Assembly: GCF_024223415.1 (NCBI RefSeq)
Contig: NZ_CP100500.1
Reading direction: 5' to 3' (one strand)
DNA length: 64,000 nt
Source of the DNA: Escherichia coli
GTDB taxonomy: Bacteria; Pseudomonadota; Gammaproteobacteria; Enterobacterales; Enterobacteriaceae
The translations under genes and the position numbers were made by a program. Numbering within the stretch: position 1 is the first letter of the stretch; each line of letters starts with the position of its first letter. Under the pieces are notes generated by a model. That model did no database searches, was not told the DNA's origin, and saw only the letters and a list, made by a program, of their open reading frames with translations. Positions 13,251-57,980 of this stretch are shown piece after piece.

Positions 13251-13784
13251 ATGCGCCTGCTCCCTCTCGTTGCCGCAGCGACAGCTGCATTTCTGGTCGT
13301 TGCCTGCAGTTCTCCTACGCCGCCGCGTGGCGTGACCGTAGTGAATAATTTCGACGCTAAACGCTATCTCGGTACCTGGTATGAGATTGCCCGTTTTGAT
13401 CACCGCTTTGAACGTGGACTGGAAAAAGTCACCGCAACATACAGCCTGAGGGATGATGGCGGCCTGAATGTCATTAATAAAGGCTATAACCCTGACAGAG
13501 AAATGTGGCAGCAGAGTGAAGGGAAAGCGTACTTTACCGGCGCACCAACTCGCGCTGCGCTGAAAGTGTCATTCTTTGGTCCTTTCTATGGCGGTTATAA
13601 CGTTATTGCACTCGATCGGGAATACCGCCATGCGCTGGTTTGCGGCCCGGACCGCGACTACCTGTGGATACTCTCCCGCACGCCAACCATTTCTGACGAA
13701 GTGAAACAGGAGATGCTGGCAGTCGCGACCCGGGAAGGGTTTGATGTCAGTAAGTTTATTTGGGTACAGCAGCCCGGTAGTTAG
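13251..13784 (+). CDS. blc: Outer-membrane lipocalin Blc
   Basis: 177 aa, lipobox LVVAC, lipocalin GTWYEIA motif. Confidence 0.93.
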
Positions 13785-14098
13785 TGAGTGCTGAGTTTCA
13801 GACCAATAATCCCCAATACGATTAACGCCAGACTCGCCAGACGCATCGGGTTAGCGGACTCACCGAGCAGCACAATGCCGGTGATGGCCGCGCCGACTGC
13901 GCCAATACCCGTCCACACGGCATAAGCCGTCCCTACTGGTAACGATTTCATCGCCCAGGCAAGTAGCGCCATACTGACAATCATCGCCGTCACGGTAATA
14001 ACACTCGGCGTCAAACGACTAAAGCCGTGGGTATATTTCAGGCCAACGGCCCATACCACTTCCAGCAGACCAGCAATAACTAAGATAATCCAGGACAT
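13781..14098 (-). CDS. gdx: Guanidinium exporter Gdx (SugE), SMR family
   Basis: ORF trimmed to Met ([14 protein letters not shown]...), 105 aa, four-TM SMR protein. Confidence 0.92.
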
Positions 14099-14116
14099 AT
14101 CAGGCTCCGGAGAATT

Positions 14117-14162
14117 GGGGCCGTCCCCGGTGAAAAGAGGCGTTTGCAGGTCGTCCTGCAAA
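14117..14162 (-). promoter_or_regulatory. Guanidine-II riboswitch (mini-ykkC) in gdx leader
   Basis: On the gdx sense strand two short hairpins uugcagg-ACGA-ccugcaa and ccgggg-ACGG-cccc, each with an ACGR tetraloop, just upstream of the gdx start. Confidence 0.8.
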
Positions 14163-14230
14163 GCTGATGGTTGAACGGATATTTTGCCAGGTGGCAGAGG
14201 AATTTCAACTATTACCTTTGTGACTATCGC

Positions 14231-14267
14231 AAAAAAACAAACGGCACGACACAGCTGTCGTACCGTT
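14231..14267 (-). terminator. Rho-independent terminator after ecnB
   Basis: Near-perfect inverted repeat acggcacgaca-cagctg-tcgtaccgt followed (on minus strand) by U-run. Confidence 0.6.
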
Positions 14268-28296: not shown

Positions 28297-28372
28297 GCCC
28301 GGATAGCTCAGTCGGTAGAGCAGGGGATTGAAAATCCCCGTGTCCTTGGTTCGATTCCGAGTCCGGGCACCA
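28297..28372 (+). tRNA. pheU: tRNA-Phe (anticodon GAA), pheU-type
   Basis: 76-nt cloverleaf GCCCGGATAGCTCAGTCGGTAGAGCAGGGGATTGAAAATCCCC...GGTTCGATTCCGAGTCCGGGCACCA with encoded CCA; sits where pheU lies relative to yjdC. Confidence 0.97.
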
Positions 28373-57279: not shown

Positions 57280-57980
57280 CATTCCATGAACTGGAAGCCC
57301 AGATACGATGCATAGAGTCACCTGATATTAAAAAGAACGAGGATCTTGAGGACGAGAACCGACGTCCAAAACAGATGCTTGCCGACCTTAGCCTAGAGAA
57401 CCGGCATTGAAAGACATTATCGAAAAAAGCTTTAAAACCAGCCTGTAAGCGTGAGCTTGTTACTCATCAGATAACGACATTTGGACTCAGTGTCCATCAG
57501 GCCTGCCGGAGTCTGAACCAGAGCAGAACGGTTTCCCATTACCGTCCGGATACCACGTGGTACGACCCCGTTATTGTGGTGGTGCAGGCAGTGGACGAGC
57601 GATATCCTCGATACGGTTTTTCAAAACTTTTTCAGGTTCTGAGGCAGCAGGTTCGCGGCAAATCGCAGTTATCCGGTCATGCTGCGCATAGATAATGGTT
57701 CGGAATTTATCTCTCTAACGCTGGCTGAATGGGCTGATATACACGCAGTAAAACGGGAGTTTATCCAGCCGGGTAAGCTGACGTAGAACGCTTTTATTGG
57801 GCGTTTTAACAGGACACACCGTACAGAAATACTCGATTTTTATCTGTTCAGAACGCTGAATGAAGTTCTAGAAATTACGGAGAAATGGTTATCAGAATAT
57901 AGCTATGAACGCACACATGAATCACTGAACAATAAGACGCTGGAAGAATATCGACGACACCATTATTTGACCAAGATATA
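57280..57980 (+). pseudogene. IS3-family transposase remnants (heavily degraded)
   Basis: Fragments ...LTLAEWADIHAVKREFIQPGKLT.NAFIGRFNRTHRTEILDFYLFRTLNEVLEITEKWLSEYSYERTHESLNNKTLEEY... across several frames. Confidence 0.5.

Follow-up and report, generated by a model that had tools for sequence, protein, structure and literature searches.

The short leader upstream of gdx (sugE) in Escherichia coli raises the question of whether this RNA senses guanidine and, if so, how it keeps the gene silent when guanidinium is lacking. We addressed this question in a stretch of 64,000 nucleotides of E. coli DNA (contig NZ_CP100500.1), here called the window, for which the original prediction had proposed a riboswitch based on two adjacent hairpins with ACGA and ACGG tetraloops on the gdx sense strand. 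Considering the evidence presented below, we hold with high confidence that the element at 14117-14162 is a guanidine-II (mini-ykkC) riboswitch located in the gdx (sugE) 5' leader and acting as a translational ON switch. The motif was first described as mini-ykkC and later validated as guanidine-II.

The whole window was scanned with Rfam 15 against all 4227 families, as had been proposed for checking the guanidine-II identity upstream of gdx/sugE. On the minus strand, positions 14162..14116 matched the Guanidine-II family (RF01068; E = 5.2e-7). The covariance-model score was 50.4 bits, where the gathering score is 32, and the alignment covered model positions 1-48 of 48. The coordinates proposed earlier, 14117..14162, agree with this match within one base. 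On the gdx sense strand (minus) the positions 14162..14116 read UUUGCAGGACGACCUGCAAA-CGCCUCUUUUCACC-GGGGACGGCCCC-A, and both this sequence and its MFE fold bear out the two adjacent hairpins. The coordinates of the features are collected in Table 1.

Table 1. Features of the gdx leader and its surroundings (window coordinates; MFE, minimum free energy fold).
Feature	Position	Strand	Description	Basis
gdx (sugE) coding sequence	13781..14098	minus	105 aa; SMR-family guanidinium/H+ antiporter; regulated gene	open reading frame and annotation
Expression platform	14116..14096	minus	AAUUCUCC; SD GGAG 14108-14105, 6-nt spacer CCUGAU, AUG 14098-14096
P2 hairpin	14128..14117	minus	GGGG-ACGG-CCCC; four G-C pairs; ACGG tetraloop 14124-14121	sequence, Rfam, MFE
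Linker L1/2	14142..14129	minus	CGCCUCUUUUCACC; 14 nt; pyrimidine-rich, G-poor
P1 tetraloop	14154-14151	minus	ACGA	sequence, Rfam alignment, MFE fold
P1 hairpin	14162..14143	minus	UUUGCAGG-ACGA-CCUGCAAA; 8-bp stem, 14162-14155 with 14150-14143
Putative sigma-70 promoter	14208..14181	minus	TTGAAA, 16-nt spacer, CAAAAT, with upstream TG	inferred from consensus scan

The MFE fold of the 47-nt element (-17.4 kcal/mol) consists of exactly P1 and P2 (z = -2.78), and none of 200 shuffled sequences was as stable. Both hairpins carry an ACGR loop closed by two G-C pairs, GG-ACGA-CC in P1 and GG-ACGG-CC in P2, and the core pattern GGACGRCC-N14-44-GGACGRCC has a single occurrence in the 64-kb window and none in 100 dinucleotide-preserving shuffles. 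The 14-nt linker compares with 13-23 nt in 45 homologous leaders and with a family range of 7-40 nt (PMC5558903). Besides, the element is placed directly in front of the translation start, with 8 nt from the end of P2 to the GGAG, which is labelled as the SD in Fig. 1 of PMC13064478, and 18 nt from the end of P2 to the gdx AUG.

Conservation was assessed in a non-circular way, with 80 gdx-homologue loci taken by Gdx protein similarity alone and scanned with Rfam afterwards. Guanidine-II was found on the gdx strand in 45 of the 80 loci, and it lies in the gdx leader in 44 of these 45, the exception being a Mesorhizobium locus (L068) described below. The 20 closest loci, one of them a plasmid copy, are from Enterobacterales, and all 19 with a readable leader were positive; the twentieth (L010) has lost its leader at a contig end. 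In these 19 loci the match ends 13-29 nt before the gdx start, and in the 21 Enterobacterales leaders (window included) P2 is separated from the start codon by 13-28 nt. Guanidine-I, -III and -IV gave no match at the gathering score in any of the 80 gdx loci. Within E. coli, the 91-nt leader was matched in 5412 of 5426 genomes, of which 3152 were at least 99% identical.

The stems are conserved as base pairs and not only as sequence. In an alignment of the gapless P1 and P2 cores of the 45 leaders, 91.8% of the stem cells were paired, compared with 67.6% in shuffles and 33-59% in slid-partner controls, and compensatory changes were observed in 10 of the 13 stem pairs (P1, 7/8; P2, 3/5). The covariation score was 0.645, compared with 0.179 for shuffles and at most 0.254 for slid controls. 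The GG-ACGR-CC columns were invariant or at least 90% conserved across the 45 leaders, and none of the 45 had ACGG in both loops, in agreement with the published account, in which GG loop variants are rare (PMC9300104). All features of RF01068 that can be tested in sequence were thus found, i.e., score, ACGR hairpins, linker length, covariation and a position 5' of the SD and start codon. The original prediction was open to refutation on two points and stood on both, as the Rfam match exists and the hairpins show both conservation and covariation in orthologous leaders picked by protein similarity only. We found no evidence against the identity of the element.

The survey of homologues also gave several observations beyond the E. 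coli leader. The remaining 35 of the 80 loci (within L002-L081) encode Gdx homologues 59-73% identical to that of E. coli and had no guanidine-class match at the gathering score in their 1.2-kb flanks. At least one of the 35 is the truncated locus L010, whose leader is not readable; a riboswitch in the others may score below the threshold, like the copy in the gdx leader of L068. The plasmid p8538-NDM-1 of Providencia vermicola (L007) carries a gdx copy with an intact guanidine-II riboswitch at 1138-1182. The chromosome of Citrobacter werkmanii (L006) has the same 45-nt aptamer, and the two copies show two differences farther downstream in the compared stretch. The Citrobacter ampC-blc-sugE module is known to be mobilised, and the sequence of the plasmid copy is consistent with such an event. 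In eight Mesorhizobium gdx leaders (L050, L051, L056, L064, L066, L069, L071 and L076), an extra 43-65 nt was observed between P2 and the SD. This extra sequence contains what appear by eye to be palindromes able to form hairpins, so the expression platform may be more elaborate there than that of Enterobacterales.

In the exceptional locus of Mesorhizobium ephedrae (L068, NZ_PXYK01000034.1), the Guanidine-II match (245-289, 34.5 bits) lies 19 nt upstream of a neighbouring ORF (309-1058, 249 aa), whose product is an ATP synthase A-chain protein with the full domain (PF00119, 218.8 bits). The gene following this stand-alone subunit a homologue is gdx and not atpE, and a second riboswitch precedes gdx at 1122-1170 with 31.8 bits, just under the gathering score. 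To our knowledge, no ATP synthase subunit a homologue is known to be under guanidine control.

The locus itself lies on the E. coli chromosome. Of 5426 complete E. coli genomes, 5425 contain its 801 bases, which are 100% identical to those of strain S51 over that length, and the genes are arranged as frdABCD, ampC and blc, followed on the opposite strand by gdx/sugE, ecnB, ecnA and efp, and then by epmB. The gdx start is annotated at ATG 14098 in the RefSeq records of both S51 and K-12; a 126-aa ORF beginning at TTG 14161 was rejected as an artefact based on this annotated start. The putative gdx promoter follows closely on the ecnB terminator hairpin (14267..14240) and, judging from its consensus elements, would start transcription approximately 12 nt before P1. 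The original prediction remarked that the element is often unannotated, and this holds for the two records examined, since a riboswitch feature is absent from both the K-12 MG1655 and the PGAP-annotated S51 RefSeq records.

The gdx product matches the NCBIfam SugE equivalog NF008512 with 193.5 bits (cutoff 126), while the Qac and EmrE models all scored far under their cutoffs on it, and its nearest solved structures are 6WK5/6WK8 (E = 1.5e-32) rather than EmrE. It had been claimed that the riboswitch confirms gdx as a guanidinium exporter. The function itself is supported by the SugE equivalog and by the K-12 RefSeq product name, 'guanidinium exporter', whereas the riboswitch alone is no proof of transporter specificity, which rests on published transport work (PMC12186494, PMC13064478).

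Elsewhere in the window, a tRNA-Phe(GAA) gene (28297-28372) is directly followed by a tyrosine integrase and an island that extends from approximately 28549 to at least 50000 in the S51 annotation. Its cargo comprises a LacI-type regulator, an alpha-galactosidase, an MFS transporter, a GH32 hydrolase, a porin, IS1 and a phosphoethanolamine transferase, together with the DNA phosphorothioation genes dndB/dndC. The tRNA-Phe site at 28297 is a pheU-type integration hotspot. The Rfam scan also matched isrN, an Hfq-binding sRNA family, at 57434-57576 on the minus strand (138.2 bits, gathering score 44), which is past the stretch of the island covered here by annotation.

The identity of the element is correct but already known. 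The leader of the window is, base for base, the sequence of K-12 MG1655 from upstream of P1 into the gdx start, i.e., that of the K-12 sugE/gdx guanidine-II element of published structural work (RF01068; P1 structure 5NDI; Gdn49 NMR construct), so the finding is not new. The neighbourhood of ampC, blc, gdx, ecnB, ecnA and efp is also the same, and only the strain background differs. Previous studies on this sequence by NMR and SAXS reported that the 49-mer has a KD of 130 uM and gains new G-C imino signals when the ligand binds, and showed by NMR that P1 with its ACGA loop is the stronger guanidinium site. The isolated E. coli P2 (ACGG) had no clear ligand binding until G44A was introduced, and the 49-mer was prone to form P1-P1' dimers in vitro (PMC9300104). 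By smFRET and coarse-grained simulation, for which the P1 crystal structure 5NDI was used, three states were described, one of them a ligand-dependent intramolecular kissing state (PMC9094411). E. coli is listed among the guanidine-II hosts, and the switch is classed as translational ON, as predicted from bioinformatics (PMC12186494, PMC5558903).

Based on these data, the following scheme can be proposed. Each ACGR tetraloop binds one guanidinium ion and the two loops form a kissing contact by means of their C-G pairs, as reported for the same sequence, which brings P1 and P2 together head to head. With the hairpins locked in the kissing complex, the leader could not mask the SD and the start codon just 3' of P2; the exposed RBS would allow ribosome initiation, and the Gdx guanidinium/H+ antiporter would be made and the ligand exported. 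For this scheme, our analysis contributes the identity, the conservation, the stem covariation and the position relative to the SD and AUG, while ligand binding, loop-loop kissing and derepression on P2 deletion are taken from the literature on the same sequence. Which nucleotides mask the RBS in the OFF state we infer from the comparisons given below.

Two deletion alleles bear on the role of P2. The cesium-resistant E. coli ZX-1 carries a 20-bp deletion, delAGAATTGGGGCCGTCCCCGG (PMC13064478), which maps exactly to 14111..14130 of the window, so that P2 and AAUUCU are lost and the linker is retained. In this strain gdx was constitutive by RNA-seq, with n = 1 per condition, and guanidinium addition was found to boost the gdx-dependent phenotype (PMC13064478); being obtained by RNA-seq, the ZX-1 evidence reports the mRNA level and not translation. 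A direct repeat of 4 nt, CCGG, borders the deletion (CA-CCGG...UUCU-CCGG-AG, window 14107..14130) and suggests that the deletion arose by microhomology-mediated slippage. Owing to this repeat, the published coordinates of the deletion (-30 to -11) are offset by 2 nt relative to the literal match. Strain 167, a human urine isolate (NZ_CM132950.1; position 2539/2540 of locus L083), carries a 29-nt deletion corresponding to window 14113..14141, which takes the linker, P2 and AAUU and leaves P1 one base (C) upstream of CUCCGGAG. This allele resembles the lab-evolved deletion of ZX-1. Among 5426 complete E. coli genomes, strain 167 is the only one with this allele, and none carries the ZX-1 junction; loss of the element is thus rare in nature.

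Considering this retention, it is hardly conceivable that the hairpins are chance or relic structures without a regulatory role. Such a reading could draw only on the motif being small, with 16 conserved nucleotides, and it is opposed by the Rfam E-value, the absence of the core pattern from all 100 shuffles, the compensatory changes in the stems, the 19 positive Enterobacterales leaders out of 19 assessable ones and the published ligand binding (PMC9300104), in addition to the near-universal presence of the element in E. coli. Control acting mainly at the mRNA level is improbable. It could operate by premature termination, either at P1 with the CUCUUUU tract or by Rho on the untranslated leader, or by RNase E decay. 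A simple scan marks P1 plus CGCCTCTTTT as terminator-like; the tract, however, stands 6 nt off the 8-bp P1 stem and is broken by C's, and most orthologue linkers are not U-rich (e.g., CGCAUCACUCAUC and CGCAUCAAUCAUUC), and P1 with the U-tract was rejected as an intrinsic terminator on these grounds. The ZX-1 deletion was seen as raised gdx mRNA (PMC13064478), an effect that is also expected as a secondary consequence of translation. In favour of such control, guanidine-III has been reported to shield its mRNA from RNase E (PMC12186494, PMC9094411). Against it, guanidine-II is classed as translational in the literature (PMC5558903, PMC12186494), and the end of the aptamer 8 nt from the SD, together with the spacers of 13-28 nt between P2 and the start codon in Enterobacterales, is the layout of a translational switch. 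A mechanism at the mRNA level may act as a secondary layer; as the main level of control it is unlikely, given a U tract that is distant from the stem, interrupted and not conserved.

Within translational control, the linker is drawn as the anti-SD in the literature (PMC9300104, PMC9094411). For E. coli this role is computationally unsupported. The best duplex between the linker and the translation initiation region (TIR) reached -3.5 kcal/mol in RNAduplex (z = +1.09 in the window), linker-TIR complementarity across the 45 leaders was no better than in shuffles (mean z = +0.28), and an in-silico exchange of CCUCUUUU for A8 left the cost of opening GGAG..AUG+5 unchanged (7.74 vs 7.56 kcal/mol). 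An alternative, which we entertain only tentatively, is that the nucleotides of P2 itself, together with a local hairpin formed by the SD with codons 2/3, mask the RBS in place of the linker. GGGAC of P2 would pair with G-UCCU (the G of AUG and the next four bases, codons 2-3), and GGC/CC with GCC/GG of the SD region, and ligand locking P2 would remove the share of P2 in the masking. The MFE fold computed with the expression platform retains P1 and exchanges P2 for such an alternative helix, with the SD G's more than 98% paired, which, along with the weak linker duplex and the inert A8 exchange, favours this alternative. Changes in the P2 stem or loop lowered the opening cost by approximately 1.3-1.4 kcal/mol, a predicted 8-10-fold gain in accessibility, and the two natural or evolved deletions lowered it further, by 2.9 kcal/mol for the 20-bp deletion of ZX-1 (about 100-fold predicted) and by 1.9 kcal/mol for the 29-nt deletion of strain 167 (about 24-fold predicted). 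Masking by P2 would also retrodict the constitutive expression in ZX-1 despite the retained linker (PMC13064478). When P1 and P2 were forced, however, at a cost of 1.4 kcal/mol relative to the ensemble, the RBS opening cost fell by only approximately 1.4 kcal/mol, roughly 10-fold, which is a small predicted gap between ON and OFF, and the GG of the SD was still paired with codon 3 in the local hairpin.

The comparative data lend weak support to masking by P2. Bradyrhizobium-type leaders have, between the SD and the AUG, the sequence GGGUCGUC, which is exactly complementary to GACGACCC in P2 (z of about -3), yet across the 45 leaders the complementarity of the P2 loop and 3' strand to the TIR was non-significant (mean z = -0.26, p = 0.17; reversed-sequence control, p = 0.09). 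The P2 loop and 3' strand were thus rejected as a general anti-SD, and they are convincing in this role only in some alphaproteobacterial leaders. The fourth base of the P2 loop (A/G) showed an association with the base that follows GGAG (Fisher p = 0.024, uncorrected for phylogeny), while within Enterobacterales the same association had p = 0.063, also uncorrected, so that the relation between this loop base and a pyrimidine at SD+1 is suggestive only. Of the 16 Ser codons at codon 2, 15 are UCC, whereas the synonymous sites of codons 4-12 vary freely, in line with pairing of this codon to P2. RNAalifold on 20 Enterobacterales platforms, on the other hand, returned the P2 hairpin alone and no conserved alternative helix, and there is no covariation to test at GGGAC because it is invariant for aptamer reasons. 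Overall, the folding calculations mildly favour occlusion by P2 with the SD-codon 2/3 hairpin over a linker anti-SD. It is possible, although doubtful, that the drawing of the linker as anti-SD is wrong for E. coli and that the modelled OFF state uses the ligand-binding nucleotides of P2 and this hairpin; considering the weak comparative support, we keep masking by P2 as a rival and not as the main conclusion, which remains a guanidine-II translational ON switch.

The guanidine-II riboswitch of Pseudomonas aeruginosa (Reiss and Strobel 2017, PMC5558903) shares with that of E. coli the two ACGR hairpins, which dimerise by their loops on guanidinium, and the translational ON model. For P. aeruginosa, the linker together with the 5' end of P1 has been put forward as the pairing partner of the SD (PMC5558903), whereas no useful complementarity between linker and SD was computed for E. 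coli. A further difference is the P2 loop of E. coli, whose ACGG sequence binds more weakly (PMC9300104). Guanidine-I (ykkC), -III and -IV have in common with guanidine-II the ligand and a regulon of gdx/sugE-type exporters and guanidine carboxylases (PMC12186494). Their folds and mechanisms are unrelated to those of guanidine-II, with -I and -IV being transcriptional and -III being a pseudoknot that governs the access of RNase E as well.

These results add no new biology at the level of the element, the exact E. coli sequence having already been studied by crystallography, NMR and smFRET. Their value lies in the annotation, since they account for the silence of gdx when guanidinium is absent and mark an element that is missing from the K-12 MG1655 and S51 records. 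If masking by P2 were true, P2 would be sensor and repressor at once, which would explain the derepression in ZX-1, where P2 is lost and the linker kept. The identity of the nucleotides that form the OFF state matters for engineering this very small riboswitch, and also for reading the riboswitch deletions that raise the tolerance to cesium, ionic liquids and quaternary ammonium compounds.
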